In this document: positions 6,010 to 46,033 of the stretch, piece after piece
Layout: each line of letters begins with the position of its first letter
Numbering within the stretch: position 1 is the first letter of the stretch
Source: a virus
Reading direction: 5' to 3' (one strand)
Virus genome (UHGV): UHGV-1367859
DNA: 64,000 nt
Translations under genes and position numbers: made by a program
Notes under the pieces: model-generated
Database searches by the model: none
What the model was told of the DNA's origin: nothing
The model's input: only the letters and a program-made list of their open reading frames with translations

Positions 6010-6082
6010 TCTCCCCTCCCAGACTCGAACTGGGGTTTATGGTTTAGAAGACCATTGTTACTATCCGCTGAACTAAGGGGAG
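6010..6082 (-). tRNA. tRNA-Arg(TCT)
   Basis: Cloverleaf with acceptor CTCCCCT/AGGGGAG, anticodon stem ATGGT/ACCAT, loop CTTCTAA and T-loop TTCGAGT. Confidence 0.7.
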
Positions 6083-6345: not shown

Positions 6346-6419
6346 TACCCCCAGAAGGACTCGAACCTTCCACCTACAGTTTAGGAAACTGTTGCTCTAT
6401 CCTGATGAGCTATGAGGGC
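6346..6419 (-). tRNA. tRNA-Arg(CCT)
   Basis: Acceptor GCCCTCA/TGGGGGT, D arm GCTC..GAGC, anticodon stem ACAGT/ACTGT, loop TTCCTAA and T arm GAAGG-TTCGAGT-CCTTC. Confidence 0.7.
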
Positions 6420-6509
6420 AAGTAAAAACTCCACATTATCTTCACAGACTATGTGAAGTGTTGCGACGTCATCCTAAAATAATCATCTTTTTACCTTAAA
6501 AAACACAAA

Positions 6510-6740
6510 TCACAATTCATCATCAGGCATTCCTCCGAAGAGTTTATTTCCTGAGAGTATATCAAATTCTTCCTCTGTGATAGTCTTGTAGCATACATAT
6601 ATGAGTAATGCTACAATACCTGTTGCAGGAAAGAAATAACCTTGGTCATAGATGCTGTCTACTCCACATATAGAGAACATAGCCATTACCATGGTAGTGT
6701 AGAGTAGGAGTCCTTTAAGGACAAGTTTCATTGTCTTCAT
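6510..6740 (-). CDS. small membrane protein
   Basis: 76 aa with two TM segments. TGA stop. Confidence 0.3.
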   Translation of the reverse strand: MKTMKLVLKGLLLYTTMVMAMFSICGVDSIYDQGYFFPATGIVALLIYVCYKTITEEEFDILSGNKLFGGMPDDEL

Positions 6741-6777
6741 ATGTCTCTTTCTGGTTTTTCTGTTGTGAGTGCGCCAC

Positions 6778-7104
6778 CTACCATATAGAAGGTAATGCCC
6801 TTAAATGATTTCCTTCTCTCTCTCTTGCCTGCTTTATTGCTTTGGCTTTGTCATAAGTCTTTTTCACAGCAGTTCTATTAGCTGTGTTATACTCCTCAAG
6901 TATTATAGCATAACTGTGTATATCCATATCTACTAGAGTATATGTCTTTGAGTATTTGACAAGATTGTTCCTTTTGAGAGCAGCCCAGAAATGAGATGAC
7001 TTTGGACAGCCACATTCTTTCAGGATTATATCCCATTGCTTCTTGGTGAAGCTTAAGTTATTGAACCAGGATAATCTTTCAACAACTTGTTCTTGCTGTG
7101 TCAT
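6778..7104 (-). CDS. hypothetical protein (ends at TAG)
   Basis: 108 aa. It is the only early minus-strand gene ending in TAG. Read-through would add 21 codons before a TAA at about 6715. Confidence 0.4.
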   Translation of the reverse strand: MTQQEQVVERLSWFNNLSFTKKQWDIILKECGCPKSSHFWAALKRNNLVKYSKTYTLVDMDIHSYAIILEEYNTANRTAVKKTYDKAKAIKQAREREGNHLRALPSIW

Positions 7105-11558: not shown

Positions 11559-11630
11559 TGCCACTTGGTGTAATGGTCAGCACATCAGATTTTGGTTCTG
11601 AGTGTAAGGGTTCAAGTCCTTTAGTGGCAA
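11559..11630 (+). tRNA. tRNA-Gln(TTG)
   Basis: Acceptor TGCCACT/AGTGGCA, D arm GTGT-AATGGTCA-GCAC, anticodon stem TCAGA/TCTGA, loop TTTTGGT, T arm AAGGG-TTCAAGT-CCTTT. Confidence 0.8.
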
Positions 11631-11634
11631 CTAT

Positions 11635-11705
11635 GCTCCCTTAGTTCAATGGAAGAACAAGGGTCTTCTAAGCCCTAAGTTGTAAGTTCGAGTCTTACAG
11701 GGAGT
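11635..11705 (+). tRNA. tRNA-Arg(TCT)
   Basis: Acceptor GCTCCCT/AGGGAGT, D arm GTTC..GAAC, anticodon stem AGGGT/GCCCT, loop CTTCTAA, T arm GTAAG-TTCGAGT-CTTAC. Confidence 0.7.
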
Positions 11706-11791
11706 ACAAACTTGTTCGTGAAAAGAATGTAAATGGCAAAGAAGTGAGAATCATTACCTACCTAGCCTGTGAAGGTGCAAGTAGGGTGCAT

Positions 11792-11864
11792 GGTGCCATC
11801 TTCTAAATGGTCAGGAAACTGCCCTTTCAAGGCAGTAATCTGGGTTCAAACCCCAGTGGCACTA
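11792..11864 (+). tRNA. tRNA-Glu(TTC)
   Basis: Acceptor GGTGCCA/TGGCACT, anticodon stem CTGCC/GGCAG, loop CTTTCAA, T arm CTGGG-TTCAAAC-CCCAG. Confidence 0.7.
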
Positions 11865-11872
11865 CAATATAT

Positions 11873-11946
11873 AGCTCATGAAGTGTAATGGTTTTGCATA
11901 TCACACTGTCAATGTGAGGGATGGGGTTCAATTCCCCCATGGGCTG
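11873..11946 (+). tRNA. tRNA-Asp(GTC)-like (irregular D arm)
   Basis: Anticodon stem TCACA/TGTGA, loop CTGTCAA, T arm TGGGG-TTCAATT-CCCCC, acceptor AGCTCAT/ATGGGCT. I could not fold the D region canonically. Confidence 0.4.
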
Positions 11947-11980
11947 CTGGCTATGTAACAAAGGCTCAGAGGAGCCAAAT

Positions 11981-12067
11981 GGAAGTCTAATCTATCAGGG
12001 ATAGAAGCAGTCTTGAAAACTGAATGCTCATGTGAAAGTGGGTGGGGTTCGAGTCCTCAGGCTTCCT
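11981..12067 (+). tRNA. tRNA-Ser(TGA) (class II)
   Basis: Acceptor GGAAGTC/GGCTTCC, anticodon stem CAGT/ACTG, loop CTTGAAA, long variable arm, T arm TGGGG-TTCGAGT-CCTCA. Confidence 0.6.
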
Positions 12068-12069
12068 CT

Positions 12070-12267
12070 ATGATAACAATATTGAGAAGAGAAGGGTGGG
12101 TACTCAACCCTAATGATAAAGTAGTCAACTCAATACTTAAGAGAGTTGAACAGAACAATGGACTATGTCCCTGTCAGAATGACTCTGAGGATAAGCATTG
12201 TCCTTGTTCGAACTATAGAGTACTAGACCACTGTTGCTGCGGTTTATATAAGAAACTTGGAGAGTAA
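12070..12267 (+). CDS. small Cys-rich protein (about 65 aa)
   Basis: The ATG at 12070 is immediately 3' of tRNA-Ser. Cys pattern CPC ... CPC ... CCC. The upstream part of track ORF 12013.. overlaps the tRNA. Confidence 0.25.
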   Translation: MITILRREGWVLNPNDKVVNSILKRVEQNNGLCPCQNDSEDKHCPCSNYRVLDHCCCGLYKKLGE

Positions 12268-12343
12268 TTTATCAAGGTGATAAACCTATCTGCTAAATAG
12301 TGTGGTCATTAATTTGGCTTTGGTTCGAGTCCAATGCTCTCCT
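12259..12343 (+). tRNA. tRNA-Ser(GCT) (class II)
   Basis: Acceptor GGAGAGT/GCTCTCC, anticodon stem CTAT/ATAG, loop CTGCTAA, long variable arm, T loop TTCGAGT. Confidence 0.6.
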
Positions 12344-12349
12344 CAACAT

Positions 12350-12424
12350 AGAGTAGTAGGGTAATAGGTAACCCCCTTCATTTGGGATGAAGTGATACTG
12401 CAAGTTCGAGTCTTGTCTACTCTA
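12350..12424 (+). tRNA. tRNA-Pro(TGG)
   Basis: Acceptor AGAGTAG/CTACTCT, D arm GGGT..ACCC, anticodon stem CTTCA/TGAAG, loop TTTGGGA, T arm GCAAG-TTCGAGT-CTTGT. Confidence 0.7.
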
Positions 12425-12430
12425 CTTAAT

Positions 12431-12504
12431 GGGCGTTGTGGTGTAATTGGCTAACACATCTCCTTTGCAAGGAGAAGTTCAGGGTTCAAGTCCCTCATTG
12501 TCCA
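12431..12504 (+). tRNA. tRNA-Ala(TGC)-like (mismatched acceptor)
   Basis: D arm GTGT..ACAC, anticodon stem TCTCC/GGAGA, loop TTTGCAA, T loop TTCAAGT. The acceptor stem has two or three non-Watson-Crick pairs, so this may be a degenerate copy. Confidence 0.45.
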
Positions 12505-12589
12505 CTTTGTTTTTCATGTTTTCATAAAATTGTAGGACTGTTGTTAGTCCCTCTTTTCGGCAGTTAGAGGATAAAGAAACTGCCCACTT

Positions 12590-12660
12590 TGGGATATAGC
12601 TCGAAGGTCGAGCGTGAGACTGTTAATCTCTTGGTGAGAGTTCGATTCTCTCTATCCCAG
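12590..12660 (+). tRNA. tRNA-Asn(GTT)
   Basis: Acceptor TGGGATA/TATCCCA, U8, D arm GCTC-GAAGGTC-GAGC, anticodon stem TGAGA/TCTCT, loop CTGTTAA, T arm GAGAG-TTCGATT-CTCTC. Confidence 0.7.
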
Positions 12661-12778
12661 CCTAATAAAGAGAATAGTACTAGTGTAAGACTCAACGTAA
12701 CATGTTCAGATATTAGCTCTGTTCTGAGTGTCGTATAACTCAACCTAGCTACAGGGGGTGGTTAAAGGTAGCAACTGG

Positions 12779-12827
12779 TAGGTATGGTACTAGTAAAAGT
12801 TCGATTCTTTTACCTACCACTATGAGA
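12779..12827 (+). ncRNA. tRNA-like minihelix (acceptor stem plus T arm only) overlapping the HNH gene start
   Basis: GGTAGGT-ATGGTACTAGT-AAAAG-TTCGATT-CTTTT-ACCTACC-A has a perfect 7-bp acceptor and a 5-bp T stem but no D or anticodon arms. The HNH ATG (12822) lies inside it. Confidence 0.3.
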
Positions 12828-13298
12828 AGAAAAGGTACAAGTAAAGTATATAGTATCTCTGATAAGGAGTTTATAAATTTAATAAATAGAGTTAATAGTT
12901 ACTCTGATGCCCTGAGAGCATTAGGACTAACTACTAAAGGGGGTTCTTCACAAGATGTCTTGAAAAGAAGAATCCAAGAACTAGGATGTTCAACATCTCA
13001 CTTTGGAGATGTAAGCATAAAATCTCCAACGCAAGTATATCCCATTGAGAACATACTAGTAAAGAATAGTAGCTATGCTAATATAGCTTCACTTAAAAGA
13101 AGGCTTATAGACAATAAGTTGCTAAAATATGAATGCAGTAAATGTGGTATATCCTCGTGGAATGGTCAGCCACTATCTCTACATCTAGACCACATAAATG
13201 GTATAAATAATGACCATAGATTAGAGAATTTAAGATTCTTATGCCCTAACTGTCATTCACAGACAAGTACATACGCAGGTAAAAACAAAAGAAAATAA
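12822..13298 (+). CDS. HNH homing endonuclease
   Basis: C-terminal CSKCG ... HLDHINGINNDHRLENLRFLCPNCHSQ is an HNH motif with zinc-binding Cys pairs. It is a paralogue of ORF 5573..5989(-) and sits inside the tRNA array. Confidence 0.7.
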   Translation: MRRKGTSKVYSISDKEFINLINRVNSYSDALRALGLTTKGGSSQDVLKRRIQELGCSTSHFGDVSIKSPTQVYPIENILVKNSSYANIASLKRRLIDNKLLKYECSKCGISSWNGQPLSLHLDHINGINNDHRLENLRFLCPNCHSQTSTYAGKNKRK

Positions 13299-13307
13299 TC
13301 ATTACTC

Positions 13308-13382
13308 ATTGGTGTAGTGTTAATGGTAGCACAGTGAACTCCAAATTCACAAGTGAGGGTTCGATTCCTTCCACCTTTGCCA
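13308..13382 (+). tRNA. tRNA-Trp(CCA), 3' CCA encoded
   Basis: D arm GTGT-TAATGGTA-GCAC, anticodon stem GTGAA/TTCAC, loop CTCCAAA, T arm GAGGG-TTCGATT-CCTTC. The acceptor has two U.U mismatches. Confidence 0.6.
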
Positions 13383-13385
13383 CAT

Positions 13386-13459
13386 TGGGATATAGCTTAG
13401 ATGGTTAAAGCATCTGACTGATATTCAGAAGACCGTAGGTTCAAGTCCCACTATCCCAA
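13386..13459 (+). tRNA. tRNA-Ile(GAT)
   Basis: Acceptor TGGGATA/TATCCCA, D arm GCTT..AAGC, anticodon stem TCTGA/TCAGA, loop CTGATAT, T loop TTCAAGT. Confidence 0.7.
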
Positions 13460-13461
13460 CT

Positions 13462-13533
13462 GTACTAGTAGCTTAATGGTAAAGCACCACACTGTGAATG
13501 TGGAAGATGTGAGTTCAATTCTCACCTAGCACC
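13462..13533 (+). tRNA. tRNA-His(GTG)
   Basis: D arm GCTT..AAGC, anticodon stem CCACA/TGTGG, loop CTGTGAA, T arm GTGAG-TTCAATT-CTCAC, discriminator C. Confidence 0.7.
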
Positions 13534-13540
13534 CCAACAT

Positions 13541-13617
13541 ATGGATGTATCCCCTGTGTCTTATACACACTAGAAAGGGTAGTTGGTCACACGCAGGTTC
13601 AAGCCCTGCCATCCATA
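13541..13617 (+). tRNA. atypical tRNA-like gene of unknown identity
   Basis: Perfect acceptor ATGGATG/CATCCAT and T arm GCAGG-TTCAAGC-CCTGC. The interior is irregular: the only anticodon-like hairpin is GTGT-CTTATAC-ACAC (anticodon TAT) or TGTG-TCTTATA-CACA (TTA). There is no standard D arm and a 21-nt variable region. Confidence 0.3.
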
Positions 13618-13675
13618 CAATACTCATGAGTGGCATAGTAGTCCCTGGGGTGGTTTCAAACTGCTATGTCTGTAT

Positions 13676-13747
13676 CTCTAGGATTCCGAATGGTTAGGAG
13701 CTGGTCTGCAAAACCAGTATTTGTGGGTTCAATTCCCACCCTAGAGT
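13676..13747 (+). tRNA. tRNA-Cys(GCA)
   Basis: Acceptor CTCTAGG/CCTAGAG, anticodon stem CTGGT/ACCAG, loop CTGCAAA, T arm GTGGG-TTCAATT-CCCAC. Confidence 0.7.
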
Positions 13748-13859
13748 CCTTGGAGGAGCAGGTAGTCTATCCATGGAAAAACCTCCGTAAAAACAGCTAC
13801 AATTGACTACTAAGGAGAAGGAAGGGATAAATAACTCCTTAACAAATACCCTTCTACCA

Positions 13860-13931
13860 CTTCCTATAGCTCAATGGTAGAGCTACTGACTCTTAATCAG
13901 AAGGTTCAAGGTTCAAATCCTTGTAGGAAGA
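13860..13931 (+). tRNA. tRNA-Lys(CTT)
   Basis: Acceptor CTTCCTA/TAGGAAG, D arm GCTC-AATGGTA-GAGC, anticodon stem CTGA/TCAG, loop CTCTTAA, T arm CAAGG-TTCAAAT-CCTTG. Confidence 0.7.
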
Positions 13932-14113
13932 CATAACATTTTAATTAAATAACAGTGTTATGAGAGTACTTAGATTTATTAAGAAAGCAGTCAAAGCTTA
14001 TTTTAGAATGACTGCTGAGAACTATTCTATAAGGTGTACAGGTGATGTATTTATACCTGTCCCTTAAGGATAGTTCCTCCTTCCTCTCTGACAAGTTATT
14101 TGATAATAAATAT

Positions 14114-14194
14114 GGGAGTATCGCGTAGTGGCAATCGCAGTTGACTGTAAATCAACCCTCTAAGAGTTCATAGGTTCGAGTCCTTTTGCTCCCA
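14114..14194 (+). tRNA. tRNA-Tyr(GTA) (class II)
   Basis: Acceptor GGGAGTA/TGCTCCC, anticodon stem GTTGA/TCAAC, loop CTGTAAA, 13-nt variable arm, T loop TTCGAGT. Confidence 0.65.
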
Positions 14195-14259
14195 CTTCAA
14201 TAGAACTTTGGCTTTTATCTATAAGCCTGACAGGGGTAGAGACCTGAATAGATAATATT

Positions 14260-14333
14260 GGAACTTTGGTGTAGATGGTTTGTCACATCAGATTGAAGCT
14301 CTGAGGGCTGGGGTTCGACTCCCTGAGGTTCCA
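14260..14333 (+). tRNA. tRNA-Phe(GAA)
   Basis: Acceptor GGAACTT/AGGTTCC, anticodon stem TCAGA/TCTGA, loop TTGAAGC, T loop TTCGACT. Confidence 0.7.
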
Positions 14334-14356
14334 CTACATAGTAAAAAGAGAAAGAT

Positions 14357-14956
14357 ATGGTAATAAAAAGAGGGGATAAAGGTCCTAATGTAAAGCTCCT
14401 TCAGAGGAAGCTTAATCTGAAAGATGATGGAATATTTGGACCTCTCACAGAAGAAGCAGTCAAAGAATTTCAGAAGGCTAATGGTCTTGTTGTAGATGGC
14501 ATAGTGGGAAATAACACATGGTCTAAGCTGAATGTAACTCAGAACAAGAGGAATATAAAGGAAATTATAGTTCATTGTTCTGCTACTCCTGAAGGTGAGG
14601 ACTTTACTACTGCGCAGATTAAGCAATGGCACCTTCAAAGAGGTTTCTCTGATATAGGTTATCATTATGTAATCTATAGAGATGGGTCAATACATGCTGG
14701 TAGACCAGAGGCTATATCTGGAGCACACTGTACTGGGCACAATACAATGTCTATTGGAGTATGCTATATCGGAGGATGTGCCAAGGATGGAAAAACTCCA
14801 AAAGATACTAGAACTGAAGCTCAAAAAGCTGCTCTAGTACAGCTTCTTAAACAGCTTAAAGCAAAGTACCCTAATGCTACAATACATGGCCATAGGGAGT
14901 TTGCAAATAAAGCATGTCCAAGTTTTGATGCTAAAGCAGAATATACTTCTCTCTAA
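14357..14956 (+). CDS. endolysin: N-acetylmuramoyl-L-alanine amidase (Amidase_2/PGRP, T7-lysozyme-like) with N-terminal peptidoglycan-binding domain
   Basis: N-terminal KGPNVKLLQRKLNL ... DGIFGP ... GLVVDGIVGNNTW matches PG_binding_1. The C-terminus carries HCSAT ... GYHYVI ... CTGHN ... IGV ... HGHRE ... KACP zinc-amidase residues. Confidence 0.75.
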   Translation: MVIKRGDKGPNVKLLQRKLNLKDDGIFGPLTEEAVKEFQKANGLVVDGIVGNNTWSKLNVTQNKRNIKEIIVHCSATPEGEDFTTAQIKQWHLQRGFSDIGYHYVIYRDGSIHAGRPEAISGAHCTGHNTMSIGVCYIGGCAKDGKTPKDTRTEAQKAALVQLLKQLKAKYPNATIHGHREFANKACPSFDAKAEYTSL

Positions 14957-14971
14957 AAAGAGAGACAATAA

Positions 14972-15053
14972 GCCTCTGTGGTGAAATGGTAAACACAAGG
15001 GACTTAAAATCCCTCGGATTTAATCCTTGAGGGTTCAAATCCCTCCAGAGGTA
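14972..15053 (+). tRNA. tRNA-Leu(TAA) (class II)
   Basis: Acceptor GCCTCTG/CAGAGGT, anticodon stem AGGGA/TCCCT, loop CTTAAAA, long variable arm, T arm GAGGG-TTCAAAT-CCCTC. Confidence 0.75.
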
Positions 15054-15057
15054 CAAT

Positions 15058-15144
15058 GCCCCCTTGGTGGAATGGTAGACACGCTGGTCTTAGGAACCAG
15101 TATGAAGTAATAGTAGTGTGAGGGTTCGAGTCTCTCAGGGGGTA
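15058..15144 (+). tRNA. tRNA-Leu(TAG) (class II; reads CUN, not a stop-codon reader)
   Basis: Acceptor GCCCCCT/AGGGGGT, anticodon stem CTGGT/ACCAG, loop CTTAGGA, long variable arm, T arm GAGGG-TTCGAGT-CTCTC. Confidence 0.75.
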
Positions 15145-15149
15145 CTGAA

Positions 15150-15612
15150 ATAAGAAATTAAGTATTTATATAACATTGAGTTTTACTGTAAATATTCAGG
15201 TGGCGTAATTCATGTTATCATAACCCCTTTACTATTTGTAAAAGTATGAAATACACAGTTTAGTATAATAAACAGAAATATCAAGTAGACATATCTGATA
15301 ATAATATAGCTATTTATGATTCCTATAAAATCACTTCATTATCTGATATGAGTAGTTTCTCATTCATTTAAAAGCTAGATTTTACCCATACAGTTCTATT
15401 AATAACAGAACTATGTTTAGCTTACTTAATGAATGGAGAACTCACAATTTATTATATTCTCTTGGTGTTCAAAAAGAAAGAACTGCTAGTGTAGACCTGG
15501 AGTCTAATCAATCTTGGTATATGACCGTAGCTTATGCTATATTATCTCCATTTTATTTACACTTTTATTAAAAATTTATTATCAATTTATTTGGTAATTT
15601 AAATTATTTTTC
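15150..15612. other. about 490-bp AT-rich non-coding spacer inside the tRNA array
   Basis: No ORF of 60 aa or more in any frame. Repeated AATTTATT / TAATTTAAATTA motifs. It ends at the promoter box of the suppressor tRNA. Confidence 0.4.
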
Positions 15613-15620
15613 ATACCTTT
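15613..15620 (+). promoter_or_regulatory. -7 promoter box TACCTTTG upstream of the suppressor tRNA
   Basis: tttttcatacctttgcattg has the same TTTT(T/G)C-TACCTTTGCA consensus as the boxes at 24310, 35484 and 42667. It ends 18 nt before tRNA position 1. Confidence 0.5.
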
Positions 15621-15637
15621 GCATTGTTAATAAAATA

Positions 15638-15709
15638 TTGCCTCATGGTGTAATGGTTAGCACAGAGGACTCTAAATCCTTTGGTCTCTGTTCGAGCCAG
15701 AGTGGGGCG
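15638..15709 (+). tRNA. amber suppressor tRNA, anticodon CUA (tRNA-Sup(CTA), probably Gln-derived)
   Basis: TGCCTCA-TG-GTGT-AATGGTTA-GCAC-A-GAGGA-CTCTAAA-TCCTT-TGGT-CTCTG-TTCGAGC-CAGAG-TGGGGCG-A. The loop has U33, anticodon CTA and A37. The D arm and 5' acceptor match tRNA-Gln(TTG) at 11559. Confidence 0.8.
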
Positions 15710-15725
15710 ACTAACTTTAATCACA

Positions 15726-15875
15726 ATGAATAAGGAAGCTTTAAAATGGTTTATGTCCAATGTAATGCTCTAGCTAGAGCAGATTGACAAAGAGGTAAGT
15801 AACTCACTGTTGCAGGATGAACAGTTTGTTCTTGATTTTTATGATAAATTAAATGAAATAAGTGTTAGAAAATAA
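15726..15875 (+). CDS. small ORF (49 aa) with one in-frame TAG
   Basis: ATG ... TAA in one frame, directly 3' of the suppressor tRNA. Below the track's length cut-off. Confidence 0.2.
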
Positions 15876-15888
15876 AAAAAATATAATT

Positions 15889-16032
15889 ATGGAACAGGTA
15901 AAGATACCACACCCTATTGCTAGGATGGTGCTAACACAGACTAAAATTATTCTTAATAGCCCCAACAACCAAGACAAAGAGTGGCTCAAAACTTTTAAAG
16001 AAGAACTTAATAAACTTATTAATCCTGAGTAA
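15889..16032 (+). CDS. small ORF (47 aa)
   Basis: ATG ... TAA. Below the track's length cut-off. Confidence 0.2.
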   Translation: MEQVKIPHPIARMVLTQTKIILNSPNNQDKEWLKTFKEELNKLINPE

Positions 16033-16043
16033 TCTTTAGGAAA

Positions 16044-16116
16044 GCTTCCTTAGTTCAGCTGGTAGAACTACTGTTTTGTACTCAGTATGTCAGGGGTTCG
16101 AGTCCTCTAGGAAGCT
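16044..16116 (+). tRNA. tRNA-Thr(TGT)
   Basis: Acceptor GCTTCCT/AGGAAGC, D arm GTTC-AGCTGGTA-GAAC, anticodon stem ACTG/CAGT, loop TTTGTAC, T arm AGGGG-TTCGAGT-CCTCT. Confidence 0.65.
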
Positions 16117-16125
16117 CAAGTAAGT

Positions 16126-16196
16126 GCAGGATTAGTTTAATGGTAAAATGCCACTCTTCCAAAGTGGATTTGGGGGTTCGATTCTCCTATCCTGCT
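16126..16196 (+). tRNA. tRNA-Gly(TCC)
   Basis: Acceptor GCAGGAT/ATCCTGC, anticodon stem CCACT/AGTGG, loop CTTCCAA, T loop TTCGATT. Confidence 0.7.
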
Positions 16197-16202
16197 CTAT
16201 AT

Positions 16203-16275
16203 TGTGGGGTGTTAGCAGTGGTAGCTAGTCAGGCTCATAACCTGAAGGTCGGAGGTTCGAGTCCTCCTCCCGCAA
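16203..16275 (+). tRNA. tRNA-Met(CAT) (Met, fMet or Ile2 not resolved)
   Basis: Acceptor TGTGGGG/TCCCGCA, D arm TAGC..GCTA, anticodon stem TCAGG/CCTGA, loop CTCATAA, T arm GGAGG-TTCGAGT-CCTCC. Confidence 0.65.
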
Positions 16276-16290
16276 CTAAATCGAAATATT

Positions 16291-18982: not shown

Positions 18983-19511
18983 ATTTGAAGGTTATAAGGT
19001 AATCATATCTCCTGAAGCTTTAGCATTAACTCCTTTTAAGAAGATATGGAACAGGGACAGGTCTGCAAACAAAAATAGAGCAATAGCCGAGATTTCCTAC
19101 ATATATTTTATGGCTGACCCAAGAAGTGACTATCAGTACATTATAGATGAGGAAAGTAGGAAGGCTTCTATTAAGGAAGGTGAAGGCTTACCTAATGACT
19201 GGGAGCCTGATAACCTTGTACTTGAGGCAATGGAGTTCTATAAGACTTTCAAGCCAGCATCTGCATTACTTCTTGAAGATACCAGAGTGGCAGTTGATAA
19301 GCTGAGGACTCTATTGAGGGAAATAGACCTTGGTGCCCTTGATGATAAGGGTAAACCTATCTATACTCTCAATACTATCACTGCAACTATCAAGCAGATT
19401 CCTACTCTTGTGAAAGATTTGAATGAAGCTGAAGCAGCTATTGCCAAGGAAATTGCTCAGAGCAATAAGGTAAGAGGTGCTCAGGAAAAAGCAATGTATG
19501 AAGATTTGTAA
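18966..19511 (+). CDS. hypothetical protein
   Basis: The track ORF 18873.. overlaps the endonuclease. The likely start is ATG 18966 (MKLLKFEG ...). Confidence 0.35.
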   Translation, partial: KMKLLKFEGYKVIISPEALALTPFKKIWNRDRSANKNRAIAEISYIYFMADPRSDYQYIIDEESRKASIKEGEGLPNDWEPDNLVLEAMEFYKTFKPASALLLEDTRVAVDKLRTLLREIDLGALDDKGKPIYTLNTITATIKQIPTLVKDLNEAEAAIAKEIAQSNKVRGAQEKAMYEDL

Positions 19512-19920
19512 TATGACACTTGAAGATGTAATTGAATCACTTAATGTGCATATACTGAATAAAAGAAGAGACTTGCACATCTTGTCAAACAGCCAGGAAC
19601 ACCTTGTTCTACAGAGAGTTATAGAACCTCATCCTACATTTAAGTCATATAAGAGGTATGAGTTTATATTATGGGTGGTTGGTAATGATTCAAAGTATAG
19701 ATTACTTACTTTGACTAAGCAGGTTAATATGAGTGATATTCCTTCATATGCACAAGAGAGCTTTATTAAAGCTACAGAATCTGAATTTGTTACTGGGCTA
19801 TTCGGCCTTATTCTAGATGGCAAGTCTTTTAATAAAAAAGACAGAACAATACTTGAAGATATTATCTATGGAGAATACCTCGGCTATGGAGATGAATGTG
19901 TACTAGACCCCCTTGACTGA
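19477..19920 (+). CDS. hypothetical protein
   Basis: 147 aa with a TGA stop. The start is uncertain. Confidence 0.3.
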   Translation: MLRKKQCMKICNMTLEDVIESLNVHILNKRRDLHILSNSQEHLVLQRVIEPHPTFKSYKRYEFILWVVGNDSKYRLLTLTKQVNMSDIPSYAQESFIKATESEFVTGLFGLILDGKSFNKKDRTILEDIIYGEYLGYGDECVLDPLD

Positions 19921-22900
19921 AGAACTCCTTGGGTCTTTACCTGAGGAAGTCAAGGAGGAGTTATTGGACACTATAAATAGTGTAGAACTTATAAAAAGAC
20001 TTATCTCTCCTAATAGGGTATATGCTAAGGATAGACCAAGAGATGAGCAAGGAAGGATTATAGTAGACCTTGCCAATCCTCATATACTTGAGGATATGGA
20101 TTATTTCAGACAACCAGCCTTACACTTTATGAAGCATGGCTGCTATACTTTTCTAAGACCAAATTCTAATCCTAACAGTGAATACAGAAAGCACTGGGAT
20201 GAGGAGATGAGGAGATGTAGAGAGGGTTATGTAAGGGAGAGTGATGGAGAATGGGTCACAGGATTCCTTTATTGGTTTCTTAATTACTGTCCCATGATGG
20301 TAAATAAGGTAATTTCTGGCACAAGGAAAGCTGTCAGAGTTGAGTCTTTCCCCTTCTTCTTTGAAGGAATCTATTGGAGATTTCACTATCTTCATCAAGC
20401 AAGAGAGGCTGGTAAACATGCCATAGAACTTGCAAAGAGAGGTTGTGCAAAGTCATATAGTCTTGCAAGTATAATGTCTCACAACCTTATACTTGGTGAA
20501 TCTACTGAAGTAAAGAGGAGGGTTATTACTGTACTTACTGCTTATCAGAAAGAGTATCTTAGTGACAGTAAGGATGGCACACTCTCTAAGTTCAAACCTG
20601 GAATTAACTTCTCCTTCAAAAATACTCCATTCCCTAGGCTCATGTTAAAGAACTCTCCTAATGAGATGGCATGGCAGATGGGCTACAAGGATGAGTTTGG
20701 TATTGAAAGTGGGTCATTGAATCAGGTGCTTGCTGTTTCTGCAAAGGATGACTCAGAGAAGTTAAGAGGTAAGAGAGGTTGGATTCTATTCGAGGAGATG
20801 GGTTCTTTTAAGGGACTTCTATCCCTGTATGACATCACAAGAAAATCTGTAGAAGATGGTGACTATACATTTGCTACAATGTACCTTGTAGGTTGTGTAT
20901 GTGCTGGTACTAAGGTATGGACATTAGATGGCAGGAATATCAATATAGAGGATTTAAAGAGAGAGGATGGTATCATAGGATTTACAGACTCCTTTGAGTC
21001 AGGTACTGAACCTAATATTCGCCTCACAAGAGGGATTACCAAAGAACCTATAATGAGTTCTATAAGTATTGCTAAAAAACCATGTGTACTTATTAAACTG
21101 AGTAATGGAAATGAACTTAGATGCTCTACAGACCATCCAATTCTTACTCAGAAACAAAGAATGAATCATAATGGGTCTATAAGGTATTATGAAGAAGTAT
21201 TCAAAAATGCTGGAGCTTTAAGTGTAGGAGATAGAATTATAGAGAGTAGGGAAGTTCCAATATTTGGGACAGATACCATGTTTGACCCTAGATTAGTAGG
21301 TATGCTTATTGGAGATGGTTCTTATGGATTAAGGCAATCCCCCAAGTATAGTTCTGAGGATAAAGAGCTTTTAGACTATGTAAAGCATAGATATGAATGG
21401 TCATTATCTGCTACTCATATTACCAAGAAAGGAAAAATATACGAGGATATAAGAATTAAAGGTATTTGTAATAAATTAAGAGAATTAGGTATTTAGGGGC
21501 AAGTAAAATCCAATAAAAGGCTTCCTATCAACTATTAGACTCTTACAAGAGATGATACCTCACTATTGCTATCTGGATTATATGATACTGATGGTAGTAT
21601 AAGCTTTAATAGAGACGGATATATATCTTTAACTCAAAGCAATAGGAAAATATTAGAGCAAGTTAAAGTACTGTGGAGAAAATTTGGAGTAGTTGGCACT
21701 ATTGTGGAGACCAAGCCAAAACTATGTTCTGATAGGAAAGATAGAAATTCTTGGTTTACTCTATCTATATCAGGGAGACATAATTGTACAAGAGTGTGTG
21801 GTGTGCTTCAACTTCTTGTTCCACACAAGAGAGATTGCCTTAAAAGGATAATGGACTATTATAATAGCAATCCGAGTATGAAGGCTCAAAAATATCCAGA
21901 GGATATAATAGTTCACAAAGTTACTTCTGTAGAAGAGATAGGTGAACAAGAAGTATATAATTTAACTGCTGGATTAAGTCATACCTACTTGGCTAACAAT
22001 ATAGTAACTCATAATACTGCTGCTGAGGATGAGTCAGACTTCAGTTCGGCAAAAACTCTTCTTTACAATCCAGATGGTTACAATATTCTGGCTATTGAGA
22101 ATGTCTATGACAGACCTAAGCAAGGAAAGCCTACCTTTGGATTTTTCTTTCCTTCTTATGTAAATAGGGCAGGATGTTACAACAAGGATGGTGTTTCTGA
22201 TGTAACAAAGGCTCTCATAGAAATTCTGTTGGCAAGACACAAAGCTAAATATTCTGCTGACCCTAAGTCAGTATTAAGAGTTATTGCCGAGGACCCAATT
22301 ACACCAGCTGAAGCTATCATTAAAGTGAAGGCTGCCTACTTTCCTACAGTAGCTCTTACTGAGAGATTGGCTCAACTTGACTCAGACCCTCATGCTTTTG
22401 ATGATGTTTACATAGGTAATCTTGCCCTAGCAAGTGGTAATAAGGTAGAGTTTAGAATAGGTAATGATGTGCCTATCAGAAAGTATGGAGTTGACAATTC
22501 AACAGTAGGTGCTATTGAGATATTTGAAATGCCTGAGAAACAAGCAAATGGGGATGATTTCAATATGAGATATATTATAGGCCATGACCCTGTGGATAAT
22601 GATTAGGCAGAGTCTTCTTCTCTTTCTTCAACCTTTGTACTTGACCTGTTTACTGACAGAATTGTAGCAGAATACACTGGTAGGCAGGCATTTGCAGATG
22701 ATAACTTTGAGATAGTAAGAATGCTGTGTCTATTCTATAATGCCAAGTGCATGTACGAGGCTCATCCATATAGTCAGTCTGTACCAACACCAAATGGTAT
22801 GAAACTGTGGAAGGATGTTAAAATAGGGGATAAACTGTTTTCCCCCACAAAGGGTGAAGTAACAGTAACTAATATACCAGTTGATGAGTACATGCCTATA

Positions 22901-24241
22901 TATAAGGTTAAATTAGCTGATGGCAGAATTGTAGAAGCTAGTAATAATCATATATGGCTAGTATATAAAGGAACTTCTAGAACTCCTATCGAAATTACTA
23001 CAGAAGAAATGCTTAGGTCAGGGTTAATAACTAAACACAAGCAACATAAGTTTTTTATACCTGAGCATAATGGGGTTGATTATAGTTATAAAGAATTGCT
23101 CATAGACCCCTATACTATGGGTTTATTGCTTTCTGAAGGGAGTCTAACAGGAGGTCATTGTGGCAAAAATTATGTACAGATGTCCTCTTCTAGGGAAGAT
23201 ATGGATTTCTACAAAAAGAATATCCCATATAGAGTTAACTATATTGGTAACAAGGGGTACTCTTGGCATATTTATATTCCAGGATGTAGAGATATAATGA
23301 CTAAATATGGGTTATATGGAGCTACAAGTCACACTAAGTTCATTCCAAATGAATATCTTTTCAGTAACTATGTTCAGAGAATGGAACTACTGAGGGGAAT
23401 AATGGATGGAGATGGGTGTGCCAGAACTAGGGGGGCTAGTGTATTTATTACATGCTCACAGTCACTTGCAAATAATGTATTATCCTTAGCTAGAAGTTTA
23501 GGGATGAAAGCATGGCTTCAGACTCCTAAAGAAGGGGTATATAGAGTGTTGATATCTTCCATATATAAGATATTCAAACTCCCTAGGAAAGTAGTGGAGC
23601 AACATACTTATAAGCCTTATAGTAAAGGAAGTAGAGCCTCAGCTATATTAGGAAAGACTGCGATAGATAGTATTAAATATTCTCACATGGAAATGGGCAA
23701 ATGTGTCACTGTAGACTCAGATGATGGACTATATATGATAGGAGATTATGTAGTAACTCATAATTGTAATAAGAAAGGACTATATGCCTATTTCAATAAA
23801 ATGAATTGCACACACCTACTGGCAGATACTCCTGAATATTTAAGAGACAAACAGATGATTAAGTATTCTGCCTTTGGCTCAAATGCAAAAGGTATCAATG
23901 CGAATGCTACTATCAACAATTATGCTAATAACCTGATAAGGGATTGGCTACTTCAGCCAGTTCCAACTATAATAAAGGAGGATGGAGAAGAGAAAGAGGT
24001 CAATATTCCAAGGCTCTATTCTCTAAGAAATAGAGCATTACTTGAAGAGTTAATTTCCTACACTCCTGAACTTAATGTGGATAGAATCAGGGCATTAGGT
24101 ATGGTTATGCTGTATAGACAAGAGAAGATTATACTGTATAGAGATAATCTTAATGCTAAGGCACAGGAGGAAGTCAGTAGTTCATACTTAGGCAATGATT
24201 CTTTCTTCCAAAGGAATTACTCCCAAGGGTATATACAGTAA
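19913..24241 (+). CDS. terL: terminase large subunit (TerL) interrupted by two inteins; three in-frame TAG codons
   Basis: Track ORFs 19913..21496, 21566..22606 and 22721..24241 share one frame and are joined through TAGs at 21494, 21536 and 22604. The C-terminal extein after the second intein is TerL-nuclease-like. It ends at TAA. Confidence 0.65.
20894..22015 (+). mobile_element. intein 1 (374 aa) with double-motif LAGLIDADG homing endonuclease
   Basis: It begins CVCAGTKVWTLDG (Hint block A). The LAGLIDADG motifs are LVGMLIGDGSYG and LLSGLYDTDGSIS. It ends VYNL ... IVTHN followed by the extein Thr. Two in-frame TAGs fall inside it. Confidence 0.65.
22760..23764 (+). mobile_element. intein 2 (about 335 aa) with LAGLIDADG endonuclease; N-terminal boundary approximate
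   Basis: The C-terminus GDYVVTHN followed by Cys (N at 23762-23764) is well defined. The LAGLIDADG motifs are MGLLLSEGSL and LLRGIMDGDG. Block A is VPTPNGMKLW ... IGDKL. The first residue could be Ala (22760) or Cys (22748). Confidence 0.5.
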
Positions 24242-24341: not shown

Positions 24342-26741
24342 ATGAGTGATTTCACAAATTTACCCCCACAACAACTGCCATTCTCCAGAAAGAATAAGGC
24401 TTGGAGAAAGAAGCACCTTGACTGGGCTGGCTCTAAGACATTTTTCAACTATTCTTTGGTAAGGAAGAGTGTGATACATAAGAAAATCAACTATGATTTA
24501 CTTAATGGTAGGCTTCACATGAGTGACCTTGCAATGGTATTGAACCCTGATAACATAAAGGCAGGTTACATACCTGAAAGGATTCAACATTACCCTATAA
24601 TGAATAGTAAGCTGAATGTTCTTAGGGGAGAAGAGTCCGATAGAGTATTTGACTATAGGGTAGTTGTAACTAATCCAAATGCTATTTCTGAAATAGAGAA
24701 TAATAAAAAGCAGGAATTACTTGCAAGAGTTCAGCAACTATTAGCTGAGGAGACTCAATCAGAGGAAGAGTTCAATGCAGAGCTTGAAAAACTCAATGAC
24801 TTCTTTACTTTTGAGTGGCAAGACATGAGAGAGGTAAGAGCCAATGCTCTCCTTAATCACTACTCTAAAGAGCTTAATTTCCCCTTCCTCTTTAACCAAG
24901 GTTTTACTGATGCAATGGCAGTAGGTGAAGAGATTTACCAATGTGATATTGTAGGTGGTGAACCTATCATAGAAAGACTAAATCCTCTTAAAGTCAGAGT
25001 ATTCAAGTCAGGATATAGTAACAGGATTGAGGATGCTGATATGATTGTACTTGAGGACTATTGGAGTCCTGGTAAAATCATAGACACTTATTATGATGTC
25101 CTTACCAAAAAGGACATGGAGTACATAGAAAAGATGCCCAATAACACAGACCAAGTAACTGACTCTATGGATAACATAGATGATAGAATGGGGTTTGTAA
25201 ATGGGCACATGATAGGGGAAGAATTTACTTCTCAGGAAGGTTTCTTCTGGGACCCCATAGGAATGACAGATGGTGTAGGCACTTCACTTCTTCCTTTTGA
25301 TGTTGCAGGAAATATAAGGGTACTTAGAGTTTACTGGAAATCAAGAAGGAGAATTAAGAAAGTTAAGTCTTACGACCCTCAGACAGGTGAAGAGGTATTT
25401 AATCTCTACCCAGAAACTTACGTTATAGATAAGGACAAAGGTGAGGAGGAAAAGATATTATATATCAATGAAGCCTGGGAAGGGACAAAGATAGGTAATG
25501 ACATCTATGTCAACATGAGACCTAGAGTAGTTCAGTATAACAGACTATCCAATCCTTCAAGGTGCCATTTTGGTATTATAGGTTCTATCTATAACCTTAA
25601 TGACAACAAGCCTTTCTCTCTTGTTGATATGATGAAGCCCTATAACTATCTCTATGATACAATTCATGATAGGCTCAACAAGCTAATCTCAAGAAACTGG
25701 GGTATGCTTATTAACCTTGACCTTGCTAAGGTTCCTAAAGGATGGGAGATAGAGAAATGGATGTACTTTGCTAAGACTAATGGTATTGTAGTTACAGATA
25801 GTTTTAAGGAAGGCAATATTGGTGCTGCTACAGGTAAGCTTGCAGGTGCTCTTAACAATGCAAGTTCTGGAGTTGTCAATGCTGAACTTGGTAATACTAT
25901 ACAGCAATATACCAATCTTCTTGAGTTTATCAAGATGGAAATGTCTGATGTGGCTGGTATTTCTAGGCAAAGAGAAGGTCAGATAAGTAATAGAGAGACT
26001 GTTGGTGGTGTCGAAAGAGCTACCTTACAATCTTCTCATATAACTGAATGGCTCTTTATCATACATGATGATGTAAAGAAGAGGGTTCTTGAGGCATTCC
26101 TTGAAACAGCTAAGATAGCTTTAAGAGGCAGAAGTAAGAAGTTCCAGTATATTCTTTCTGATAATTCAAGTAAGGTTATGGACATAGATGGAGATGAGTT
26201 CTCTGAAAATGATTATGGCCTTGTTGTAGATAATAGTAATGGACTACAGGAGTTACAGCAGAAGATGGATATGCTTGCTCAGGCAGCTTTGCAGAATCAG
26301 ACTCTTACCTTCTCCACTATCATGAAGCTCTATAATAGCTCTTCTCTTGCTGAAAAACAGAGAATGGTTGAGAAGAATGAACAGGAGCTTATGCAAAGAC
26401 AGCAGGAAGCTCAACAGCAGCAATTACAGGCTCAGCAACAATAGGCTCAGATGGAAGCTCAGATAAGGGAAGCTGAAATGCAGCTCAAAGATACAATGAA
26501 TCAGAGAGATAATGAGACTAAGATACTTATAGCAGGTATAGGTTCTCAAAGTCAGGAAGATGGCATCCAAGAGCAGGAGTTTTCTGAAGAGGCAAGAGCT
26601 AATCTGTTTGAAAAGATGAGAGAGTTTGATGAGAGGCTCAAACTTGACAGAGAAAGGTTAGCCTTTGATAAGAAGAAAGCTCAAACTGATGCTGAACTCA
26701 AAAGAAAATAGATTAATAAGAAACCAAATACTAGTAAGTAA
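24342..26741 (+). CDS. portal protein (candidate) with two in-frame TAGs near the C-terminus
   Basis: A 700-aa track ORF follows TerL. It continues in frame through TAG 26442 and TAG 26709 to TAA 26739-26741. Gln-rich tail. Confidence 0.5.
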
Positions 26742-27655: not shown

Positions 27656-28439
27656 GAAAGTTTAGAGCAATAGTACAAACTCCAAAAGAACCATAGGACC
27701 ATGAAGTCTTATGGTATTGGAAGGGTAATCTACTATACTGGAATAATGGAGGTTGGGAACCATTTCATACCAATATTAAAGCTTCAGATATAAAATTTGA
27801 GTCTATCTTTTTTGATAATAAAGATAATGTAGATGAGGTACTAAGGGCATTACTTGAGATAGTTATAAGTAACCAATGGAAAATAGAGAATGCTTTTACA
27901 GTAATTGAAGCTGACAATATCCTTACTAATTCATTCTTTATTGATAGTACTAAGTATTGGTTATCTGAGATTCTTCAACCTTTTACAGTAGGGGCTAAAT
28001 TTATTAAGGTAGGGAAAGGGTTTCTCTCTAAACAGAGAGCTAAAGCTGCTGTAATCAGAGAAGATGGAGTTCCTGTATTAGCTGTAAAGGGTTCCACTAT
28101 ACCTTGTACCCTTACTTAGCCTTTCTTATTCTTAAATCTGGAAGCAATAGACCCTGATTATAAATTCCCATTCTATGTTACTTTAACATTCAAATTTAAA
28201 GGAACTTCATTTGGTAATATAGAAATAGCTACCGTAGATTAGGATGGTGAGTCTATTGAAATAAAAGATACTTTGAGAATAGAACCTGATAATAAATGGC
28301 ACATATATAAAACTACTTTTTTACTTGATAGGTATAAAGGAATAAGGTTTAATTTAAATGCTGATGTAAGGATAAAGGGGTTAAATATGAGAATGAATGA
28401 GGCTAGGACCCTTCATCTCAAGCCAGAAAGTTTAATTAA
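27651..28439 (+). CDS. hypothetical virion protein with in-frame TAG(s)
   Basis: The ATG overlaps the previous stop as ATGA. The first TAG is at 27693. No track ORF covers it. The TAA end is near 28437-28446. Confidence 0.45.
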
Positions 28440-28453
28440 TAAATAATGTAGAT

Positions 28454-29551
28454 ATGACTAAATAGGAAAAGGATGAACTATTTAATGAGTTGCTAGCTTT
28501 TCTCTCTAGGTCTTCAGTAAGTGTTGAAGACCTTCCAGAGGCTGGCAGCTTAGATGATGTGAATAGTTTTCCTGCATATAAGAAAGACTCTAAGGAGCTG
28601 GTAACCATTCCTTCTAGTGCTCTTAAAGAAGCTTCAAATAAAGCTGATGCAGCTGCTCAGTCTGCACTTAGTGCATCTTAGCAATGTATGATTGCTGGAG
28701 CTAATGCTAACAATGCTGTATAGAGAGTCAACTAGACCTTGAATTCTTTGCCTGGTTAGGTAGAAACACTGGTTAATAATTCTACTAGTGCACAGTCTAA
28801 TGTAAATTCTAGAATTATTAATTTCTATACAAGTAGACCTTCTTCTAATGCACTTGAATTAGAAATAACTGTATCAGAAAATGATTATAGAACTTTTGAA
28901 TAGCTTCTGGAAGAAGAGTATGACTATGCTGATAGTTATGACCATAGACCAATAATATTTACAGTTCTACAGAATAATGGTGTACCTAAGTATAGGAAGA
29001 TTGTTTATGACAATAACCTTAGGGATAGTTAGAACTATATTGACTATGACTTAAGTGGACTTCATGAGAGAATAGATACTCTTGACAGTAGGGTTCCTTA
29101 TGATGCAGGAATAATAGAACTAGATTTAGTAAGTCAAGGAGAAACAACTTCCAAACAGGAAACTTTATTGCCTTCTAATAAAAATTATTTCAAATTTATA
29201 GAGATACTAGAATAGAGGGATAATAGGACTGTGCTATGTACTATTGTCCCATCTAAAACTTAGGTAGGAAGTCCTTATACTGGTTTCAGATTCTTATGTT
29301 CTCTTCATAAGGATGGCTATGACTGGTCTATTCTTACAGGTAAATATATTGATGTTGGTGAGGATGCAATAAACATTTATTATCTTTGTATTAAATGTTA
29401 TAAGCCAACTTTTGGAGTAGGTGATGGGATGAGTATATTAAAGTATCCTATTAAACAAGTAACTATTAGGCTTACTGAAGGTGAAGGAGATGGTCATTGT
29501 ACAGAATTGTAGGAGATTAAAGCAACTGAAATAGTTGAAAAAATGATATAA
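28454..29551 (+). CDS. hypothetical virion protein, about 10 in-frame TAG codons
   Basis: One frame runs from ATG 28454 to TAA 29549. Track ORF 28490..28681 is its N-terminal piece. TAGs seen include tct-tag-caa, gta-tag-aga and aac-tag-acc. Confidence 0.5.
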
Positions 29552-29574
29552 TAAATGATAAATGAATTTTAAGT

Positions 29575-30633
29575 ATGGAAATTGAATATTTAGGAAAAAG
29601 CTCTTTTAATAAAATATAGAACTAGCTTCAGCTTCTTAATTCCTATAGTGAATGGAAAGACATCACTGAAGAGTGTGTTCATATTGGATATAAAGTTAAT
29701 CCACAGATAGTTCCTTAGGATTTGCAAGAAGGTAATGACATTTTTGTGGAAGATGAAAATAGTATTGCAATAAATGCTGTAAGCCTCTTATCAGAGGATG
29801 CTACTTGGTGTGGTGACTTGAACGTTGCGTATAACTTTAAAATATTAATTTAGCCTAAAGCTTCTTCTAGCTCTGACATGGGTTTAATTGCTCAAACTAT
29901 CTTAAGTAAGGATTTTGTTGGAAAAACCCTCGTAGTAAAAGCTGCTAATATTGGAGAGGAAGTGGAAGAGGATTACTCCATATAGGACATAACAGTTAGT
30001 GAAGTTTTAGAAAATGGACTTACATATAAATAGAGGGAGAGCAGGTTTTTCAATGAGAAGGAGCAATTTGTGGCAAGCCTAATGGTAAGTTAGGCAGTAG
30101 TATCTTTCCATTATAACCAGGAATATAAATACAAGGTAGTTTACAAAGACTCTGTCTTTACAACGCCAGCCGACTTTGTAAATAAAATGGTATATGGAGA
30201 CGCTCCTTTTAGTATGATTGGTTAGAAGCTCTCCTCCGCAACTTTCAGTGATGATACCGATTAGATAAGGACCCTCTGGCCATAGGGTTGGGCCTCTTTT
30301 ATAGTTGTTCCAGTATATGAAGGCGAGCCGAATGGTAATGTTAAGTCAGGTCTAAGAGTTGAATATTATAGTGGTGATAACACTAAACATGAAACTATAG
30401 TGGACAATACATCATACCAGTCTATATATGGTTAGACTGATTATCTTATTATACCAAAAGTAAAAGGAGCTACCTAGTCAGACTACCTAGTTATAGGTAG
30501 GATTGACTCAGCTTTTAAACCAGTGGGAGTTGAAATCTATGAGATGACTGCTCCTTATAGATAGATTGTCGATAGGGTAAGTGATGTAGACTATAGAATC
30601 AGAGAATTAGAAAAGTAGCTGAATGCTACATAA
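29575..30633 (+). CDS. hypothetical virion protein, about 17 in-frame TAG codons (about 5%)
   Basis: One frame runs from ATG 29575 to TAA 30631. No track ORF of 60 aa or more covers it because of the TAG density. Confidence 0.5.
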
Positions 30634-46023: not shown

Positions 46024-46033
46024 TTATATTAAC

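Follow-up and report, generated by a model that had tools for sequence, protein, structure and literature searches.

Two predicted LAGLIDADG inteins, one of them class 3 by sequence, in a TAG-recoded terminase gene of a crAss-like phage

How could a phage obtain a functional terminase large subunit (TerL) from a gene that the standard genetic code breaks into pieces? The question is raised by the terL locus of UHGV virus genome UHGV-1367859, of which a stretch of 64,000 nucleotides (nt), here called the window, was analyzed. An earlier note on this DNA had read three open reading frames (ORFs; 19913-21496, 21566-22606, and 22721-24241, of 527, 346, and 506 amino acids (aa), respectively) as a single terL invaded by two LAGLIDADG inteins and dependent on three TAG read-throughs. 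The locus is very probably the terL of a Steigviridae crAss-like phage close to Kehishuvirus, in which TAG encodes Gln and two self-excising LAGLIDADG inteins, one of class 1 and one of class 3, interrupt the protein.

The identity of the gene is carried by homology along its whole length. The intein-free TerL of crAss001 (gp19, 762 aa) matches the window at 583 of 731 aligned residues (80%), distributed over three extein pieces, and phrog_6681, “terminase large subunit”, matches the terL translation in three separate stretches (E 6e-79; PHROGs). Megablast against GenBank phages returns the terL of Kehishuvirus (crAss001-like) as the sole matches, over query positions 2103-2846, the exact interval between intein 1 and intein 2. 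This segment, extein 2, is 78% identical in nucleotides to crAss001 terL and is bounded by both intein junctions. Downstream of terL lies the portal gene, an 800-aa ORF (24342-26741) that is 71% identical to the crAss001 portal, and the gene order in crAss001 is alike.

The three ORFs do share one frame, in which the only stop codons between 19913 and the TAA at 24239-24241 are the TAGs at 21494, 21536, and 22604. Since a run of 1457 codons lacking both TAA and TGA would arise by chance with P ~1e-34 at the base composition of the window, the continuity of the frame is not fortuitous. The precursor has a mass of ~166 kDa, and the computed doubly spliced product is a TerL of 748 aa and ~86 kDa.

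The 5′ end of the gene requires correction. While the end at 24241 stands, the TTG at 19913 does not mark the start: crAss001 TerL reaches 17 residues further upstream, reading MNKYQTELTEEL, and the window upstream in the terL frame reads MENTSAMEMNVY-TAG-TPLTEEL. The relative L003 (IMGVR_UViG_3300045988_037736), a genome ~99% identical to the window (99.8% over 20443-22755), has the N-terminus MENTSAIEMNEYQTPLTDEL, in which a regular Gln codon stands at the position that matches TAG 19904. Homologous TerL N-termini conserve “..(N/K)xYQT(P/E)LT(E/D)EL”, to which “MNVY-TAG-TPLTEEL” corresponds in the window, and the core “YQT(P/E)LT” is also found in L005, L007, and cr111_1. Because the conserved N-terminus continues through TAG 19904, the predicted start is upstream of 19913, at ATG 19868 (alternatives ATG 19886 and 19892, the latter being the latest). 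The three TAGs that the earlier note counted are thus joined by a fourth, at 19904. An upstream 147-aa ORF (19474-19920, + strand, TGA 19918-19920) overlaps the corrected coding sequence by ~30-50 nt in another frame. Table 1 collects the features.

Table 1. Coordinates of the terL features and of the suppressor tRNA gene in the window
Feature	Position	Strand	Basis and remarks
terL precursor coding sequence	19868..24241	+	crAss001 identity, phrog_6681, N-terminal alignment with crAss001, L003, L005, L007, cr111_1
Extein 1	19868..20893	+	N-terminal putative ATPase part; includes AKRGCAKS and WILFEE, ends ...TMYLVG; collinear with crAss001 TerL
Intein 1 (374 aa, class 1)	20894..22015	+	exact gap against crAss001, PhiCrAssBcn17
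Extein 2	22016..22759	+	putative ATPase end and first nuclease part; includes IIGHDPVD, ends ...AKCMYE
Intein 2 (335 aa, class 3 by sequence)	22760..23764	+	exact gap against crAss001; no counterpart in L003
Extein 3	23765..24238	+	C-terminal putative nuclease part, begins with Cys+1 (TGT)
TAG no. 1	19904..19906	+	conserved “YQTPLTEEL”; Gln in crAss001, L003, L005, L007, cr111_1
TAG no. 2	21494..21496	+	intein 1 endonuclease domain; TAG kept in L003; Tyr in L004, L005
TAG no. 3	21536..21538	+	intein 1 endonuclease domain; Gln in L004, L005
TAG no. 4	22604..22606	+	extein PVDND-Q-AESSS; Gln in crAss001, P0001-P0004; Ala in L004; Val in P0005
Suppressor tRNA, anticodon CUA	15639..15711	+	ARAGORN; Rfam tRNA model, 55 bits

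What separates the extein pieces? Aligned to crAss001 TerL, the translation shows two clean gaps that coincide with the two proposed inteins, and a blastn comparison with PhiCrAssBcn17 places the junctions at identical bases. Nowhere does crAss001 TerL run collinearly through either insert. Intein-free alleles thus exist in crAss001 and PhiCrAssBcn17, as well as in L003 for the second site, and intein (Hint) and LAGLIDADG signatures are detected by Pfam and NCBIfam models. In all these respects, as in the two LAGLIDADG motifs of each intein, the earlier note is upheld.

Intein 1 occupies the interval the earlier note had given it, from CVCAG to IVTHN and a following Thr. Its junctions (spaced slashes mark insertion points throughout) are TMYLVG / CVCAG...NNIVTHN / TAAE. 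Its Cys1 is followed by S-T-D-H in block B, Asn in position 4 of block F, T-H-N at the C-terminus, and then Thr+1; Cys1, S-T-D-H, T-H-N, and Thr+1 are conserved in L003, L004, and L005. The Pfam Intein_splicing model (PF14890) scores 46.2 bits (cut-off 35.8), LAGLIDADG_3 (PF14528) 59.2 bits over two stretches (cut-off 22.5), and TIGR01445 intein_Nterm 25.6 bits (cut-off 24.5). The double-motif LAGLIDADG endonuclease contains LVGMLIGDGSYG and LLSGLYDTDGSIS (LVGMLIGDG and LLSGLYDTDG), and both motifs retain the acidic residue. This site is also filled by orthologues in L003 (~99.7% nt identity), in L004 (76% nt), and in L005/L006 (65% nt). By its sequence, intein 1 is a standard class 1 intein that is predicted to splice. 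The insertion site, YLVG / TAA, is ~30 residues past the Walker B-like WILFEE and probably falls in the putative coupling (C) motif of the ATPase, a location from which a mycobacteriophage TerL intein has also been reported (PMC5050341).

Intein 2 differs from intein 1 in its first residue. Its junctions are AKCMYE / AHPYSQ...DYVVTHN / (C/S)NKKG, with the first residue fixed as Ala by alignment to the YE-S of crAss001 and of L003. The approximate start given in the earlier note, 22750-22760, thereby becomes exact. The predicted end, T-H-N followed by Cys, is also right, except that 23764 is the final base of the Asn codon; the +1 Cys (TGT) is encoded by 23765-23767, where intein-free alleles have Ser. 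Class 3 inteins are defined by the lack of an N-terminal nucleophile and by a Trp B:12/Cys F:4/Thr G:5 triplet, together with His G:6, Asn G:7, and a +1 residue at G:8 (Tori et al.; PMC2807308). All of these are present: block B reads ASNNH-I-W (His B:10, Trp B:12), block F reads MGK-C-VTV (Cys F:4), and block G reads VV-T-H-N / C (Thr G:5, His G:6, Asn G:7). Among PDB sequences, intein 2 is matched best by the class 3 DnaB intein of M. smegmatis (6BS8; E 8.8e-6), with which its W, C, and THN align. Ala1, His B:10, Trp B:12, Cys F:4, T-H-N, and a Cys, Ser, or Thr at +1 are invariant across a family of 10 members (the window, L003, P0001, P0003-P0006, P0011, P0019, and P0020, some of which are not TerL). 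This family covers several insertion sites and host proteins, and some members have Ser+1 or Thr+1.

The predicted structure of intein 2 agrees with its motifs. Its AlphaFold2 model (pLDDT 91.4, pTM 0.91) is matched by Foldseek to PI-SceI, the Tli and Pho VMA inteins, PI-PfuI, and PI-PkoII (E 1e-17 to 1e-9) and to 6BS8 and the M. chimaera class 3 intein 6RIY (target TM ~0.78). The LAGLIDADG motifs, MGLLLSEGSL and LLRGIMDGDG, are each acidic-ended and lie in one chain; LAGLIDADG_3 scores 28.8 bits (cut-off 22.5), and Hom_end (PF05204) scores 25.1 bits, above its cut-off. By every sequence criterion, intein 2 is of class 3, as the earlier note had suspected from its Ala, and a class 3 mechanism is predicted.

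An alternative that appears quite unlikely is that intein 2 does not work by class 3 chemistry, either because Cys+1 attacks directly, as in class 2, or because the intein is splicing-dead and leaves TerL inactive. The standard first step is indeed excluded by Ala1, a Cys+1 is found here as in the class 2 KlbA inteins (PMC2807308), the Pfam splicing-domain score is weak, and the class 3 chemistry is predicted from sequence. Nevertheless, a direct attack by Cys+1 accords poorly with a complete Trp/Cys/Thr triplet that is invariant in the 10 relatives, including those with Ser+1 or Thr+1, and the closest solved sequence is a characterized class 3 intein with an aligned triplet. A dead intein is at odds with purifying selection on the Hint parts; it should also be lethal in an essential protein such as TerL, yet the same intein occurs at the same site in at least 6 diverged phages.

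For the full precursor to be made, the in-frame TAGs must be decoded. Homologues have Gln opposite three of the four terL TAGs (19904, 21536, and 22604), and homology to relatives runs in-frame across all four. The window encodes a tRNA with the anticodon CUA, which sits in an array of 20 tRNA genes (11559-16276, + strand); the window total is 23, with the others at 6009-6419 on the − strand. In its 5′ half (acceptor and D arm), this tRNA matches the phage’s own tRNA-Gln(UUG) at 23 of 27 positions, and it presumably reads TAG as Gln. The “Pyl” label that ARAGORN gives it is due solely to the anticodon.

Treating TAG as sense produces many more long ORFs in the window, several of which are TAG-rich: 40 in-frame TAGs occur in 45953-50803 (+ strand), 14 in 29566-30633, and 10 in 28436-29551. 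With 4 TAGs to 33 CAA/CAG codons, the load of terL is low next to some neighboring genes; some long ORFs left of 19.8 kb carry TAGs as well (9 TAGs to 49 CAA/CAG). A strict early/late split of TAG usage was considered and dropped on account of these left-hand ORFs. The two TAGs of the portal gene are uninformative as evidence for Gln, both lying in poorly conserved C-terminal stretches. The terL genes of L004, L005, L007, and cr111_1 have no TAG at all, and the terL TAGs of the window are therefore recent substitutions. Since a tRNA(CUA) is encoded and in-frame TAGs are found in many other long ORFs, the sequence points to a genome-level reassignment of TAG to Gln and not to a read-through device specific to terL. 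The earlier claim that TerL needs TAG decoding accordingly holds, while the notion that this dependence is peculiar to TerL does not. TAG-to-Gln recoding is reported for Beta/Steigviridae and Delta crAss-like phages (PMC7886860; bioRxiv 10.64898/2026.08.21.746148).

Two further observations concern decoding in the window. The frame at 45953-50803 (+ strand) extends for 1617 codons without TAA or TGA, with TAG far denser than in terL. A transfer-messenger RNA (tmRNA) is matched full-length by Rfam RF00023 at 4943-5338 on the − strand (69.5 bits, gathering score 47, E ~6e-27); its tRNA-like ends match well and its middle poorly, and it is absent from the ARAGORN output. A phage-borne tmRNA beside TAG-as-sense decoding may merit a separate look.

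It is very unlikely that the TAGs are true stops, which would make terL a pseudogene or a set of separate polypeptides and the phage defective or reliant on another terminase. The standard code does break the frame into separate ORFs, and TAG 21494 replaces the Tyr of orthologues, as a nonsense mutation would. True stops do not account, however, for in-frame homology past every TAG, for the alignment of three of the four with Gln (an ordinary Gln codon at 19904 in L003), for a tRNA(CUA) encoded in the window, for the frequency of TAG in other long conserved ORFs, or for the absence of TAA and TGA over 1457 codons, and recoding of TAG to Gln is documented in the phage family by the two studies cited above. 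Least probable of all, to the point of being negligible, is that both inserts are group I introns with in-frame LAGLIDADG ORFs that are removed from the RNA: crAss-like phages commonly have group I introns that carry homing endonuclease ORFs (PMC7886860) and the terL of L007 has an insert with an HNH ORF, yet the inserts here are exact multiples of three (1122 and 1005 nt) in frame with the exteins, have Hint blocks A and G at their ends (Cys1 or Ala1 ... His-Asn plus a nucleophile), match intein hidden Markov models, and have a predicted Hint plus LAGLIDADG fold, and no Rfam intron family is found in the window at the gathering threshold.

Several points weigh against a terL with two working inteins and TAG read as Gln. 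Splicing of either intein and Gln insertion at TAG are both deduced from sequence anatomy. Intein 2 misses the Pfam Intein_splicing cut-off (12.4 versus 35.8 bits), so that for its Hint domain the support comes from the PDB match, the conserved motifs, and the predicted fold. Opposite TAG 21494, the orthologues of intein 1 in L004 and L005 have Tyr (GIYGQVK) and not Gln; either the endonuclease tolerates a Tyr-to-Gln replacement or this is a hint that the endonuclease is drifting. The dN/dS values that indicate purifying selection are approximate, dS being saturated (>1): against L004, intein 1 gives 0.14 as a whole and 0.13 in its endonuclease segment (exteins 0.12-0.13), and intein 2 gives 0.13 against its L007 orthologue. 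Neither the Pfam terminase models nor the PDB sequences give a match to the spliced extein, and the ATPase and nuclease motifs at both insertion sites are putative assignments made from patterns. Finally, the exact intein-2-bearing allele is absent from the collections searched, and the 506-aa C-terminal ORF has no record in public assemblies.

If the favored interpretation of a recoded, doubly intein-bearing terL holds, the mRNA would be translated into one 1457-aa polyprotein, with the phage tRNA(CUA) inserting an amino acid, most likely Gln, at the four TAGs. The two inteins would then excise themselves and join the three extein pieces into the 748-aa TerL. Intein 1 would follow the standard four-step route (Cys1 ... 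His-Asn / Thr+1). In intein 2, Cys F:4 would attack the Glu-Ala junction first, and the N-extein would then be passed to Cys+1, before cyclization of Asn and an S-to-N shift. As both insertions interrupt putative active-site regions, DNA packaging should depend on the removal of each intein. With an apparently intact double-motif endonuclease in each, the inteins are therefore predicted to be selfish mobile elements, which in a co-infection would home by cleavage of the empty allele and gene conversion.

The motifs AKRGCAKS (Walker A-like), WILFEE (Walker B-like), GHD, MYE, and NVD are pattern-based candidates and are conserved with crAss001. Intein 2 is inserted directly after the Glu of “CMYE”, which lies 57 residues past the Asp of “IIGHDP”. 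This spacing would correspond to the Asp401-Glu458 spacing of the T4 gp17 nuclease. We infer that intein 2 is located at the nuclease active site, adjoining a putative catalytic Glu (MYE / C).

Evidence of mobility comes from the comparison with L003. This relative keeps intein 1 and is precisely devoid of intein 2 (...CMYE-SNKKG...), its empty site reading ...TGCATGTATGAA / TCCAATAAGAAGGGCCTG... At 2528-3550, L003 has an extra 341-aa insertion in its Walker A motif, AKRG / AHPYFQ...FITTHN / CAKS, which the window lacks; it is a LAGLIDADG intein with class 3-type residues and a 36% identical paralogue of intein 2 of the window. Downstream, the two terL genes differ at 12 positions, all of them in the stretch 23776-23806 just 3′ of the intein 2 insertion; when the +1 codon is included, 14 of the first 45 nt differ and none of the next ~435, and one further change lies 4 nt upstream of the site. 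This sharp divergence of the tract 23765-23806 in extein 3 fits endonuclease-initiated gene conversion, and selection for a resistant target could also yield it. Of the two tracts, that of L003 (GYFSRMEC) is the more atypical one relative to other alleles, and the event may have been a gain or a loss of intein 2. Overall, the polymorphism between the window and L003 points to recent endonuclease-driven exchange.

Relatives of intein 2 were drawn from a protein database, from GenBank phages by tblastn, and, in one metagenome contig, from an exact 28-mer at the junction; a peptide-pattern scan of IMG/VR for such relatives found none. Orthologues occur at MYE / C in at least 6 other, more distant crAss-like contigs (P0001-P0006, L007/L008, and L010). 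Other terL sites also hold related inteins, GK / S in cr111_1 and GNK / S in P0011 (FFGNK / ... / SKGVNAT), and family members in non-terminase hosts (P0019, P0020) reside in a tail-tube gp19-like protein (PF06841) and an AAA_25/RecA-like ATPase (PF13481). By tblastn, 782 phage records have members of the broad intein 2 family, and 295 of these are mycobacteriophages. The L007 contig (ENA ERZ27271068 k141_273162, 99 kb), which has an intein 2 orthologue and no intein 1, has a terL in which a further insert of ~680 nt (6320-7000), with an HNH_3 endonuclease ORF, separates “GHDP” from “VDND”. This insert is group I intron-like in appearance and has no Rfam match even at E<=1.

Neither the recoding nor the intein load of crAss-like terL is new to the literature. 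A crAss-like TerL with two inteins and TAG recoding, that of the Delta-group cMAG OBYQ01000140, was described by Yutin et al. 2021 (Nat Commun 12:1044, Fig. 7b; PMC7886860). It likewise has three in-frame extein fragments and two inteins, with TAGs in both extein and intein parts under an alternative code. It belongs to the Delta family, whereas the window is Beta/Steigviridae-like, and its inteins were called “Hint-Hop type” with no mechanistic class given (PMC7886860). The recoding here shows no substantive difference from that of other gut phages with TAG-to-Gln (code 15) in the Beta/Steigviridae and Delta/Suoliviridae, which also combine in-frame TAGs in structural and packaging genes with a genome-borne tRNA(CUA).

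Closer parallels for intein 2 come from established class 3 inteins, namely, the mycobacteriophage Bethlehem DnaB intein, DnaBi1 (6BS8), and TerL1-c/-d/-e, with which it has in common the triplet, the His-Asn pair, the +1 nucleophile, and the lack of a nucleophile at the N-terminus; the mycobacteriophage TerL1 inteins also reside in a phage TerL. Class 3 inteins in mycobacteriophage TerL are documented, with a phage origin proposed, and all mycobacteriophage TerL inteins are reported in the ATPase domain (PMC5050341). Intein 2, in contrast, belongs to a Bacteroidota phage instead of an actinophage and sits at a putative nuclease-domain site, and its Ala-His-Pro-Tyr start and LAGLIDADG endonuclease set it apart from DnaBi1, which is a mini-intein. 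Nearer in phylogeny is the 1099-aa TerL of cr111_1 (Lahndsivirus rarus, NC_055880, YP_010111377), of the same subfamily as the window, Asinivirinae. Its terL (L009 2410-5709) holds a 39%-identical member of the intein 2 family (AFAYSQ...HLW...KCV...TTHN / S), a single intein at the P-loop/Walker A site GK / S, and has no TAGs, whereas intein 2 of the window is placed in the putative nuclease domain. The RefSeq record of cr111_1 annotates the whole intein-bearing ORF as “terminase large subunit”, leaving the class 3-type intein unannotated. PI-SceI, Tli VMA, and PI-PfuI share with the intein 2 model a Hint domain with an inserted double-motif LAGLIDADG endonuclease (E 1e-17 to 1e-11, TM ~0.6-0.7) and differ in being class 1 inteins with Cys1, 12-14% identical to intein 2, from eukaryotic and archaeal hosts. 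A full-text search retrieved no paper that ties class 3 inteins to crAss-like phages, the lone match being the above mycobacteriophage study (PMC5050341), in which “crass” is incidental.

Relative to this literature, the present locus adds the class assignment of intein 2, its location at the putative nuclease site, and a pair of near-isogenic filled and empty alleles, all of which are increments within known categories; it opens no new mechanistic question. A bolder proposal, which we consider rather improbable, is that the intein 2 clade (L003, cr111_1, P0011) is homing actively among human-gut Crassvirales at four or more terL sites, including a nuclease active-site position from which no phage TerL intein is reported, and that, beyond selfish spread, suppressor-tRNA-gated translation together with thiol-dependent splicing (Cys F:4, Cys+1) could time packaging in an anaerobic host. 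For the thiol-dependent layer, an analogue is provided by DnaBi1, a class 3 intein that is redox-sensitive (PMC6195587).

For the study of these phages, the locus illustrates why gene callers that use the standard code fragment crAss-like terL and why an intein-aware, code-15 translation is needed. The window and L003, which differ by one intein at each of two sites, represent a near-isogenic substrate/donor system for homing and class 3 splicing. Class 3 inteins, mostly studied in actinobacteria and their phages, would with this locus extend to Crassvirales that infect Bacteroidota and to a site in the putative nuclease domain of TerL.

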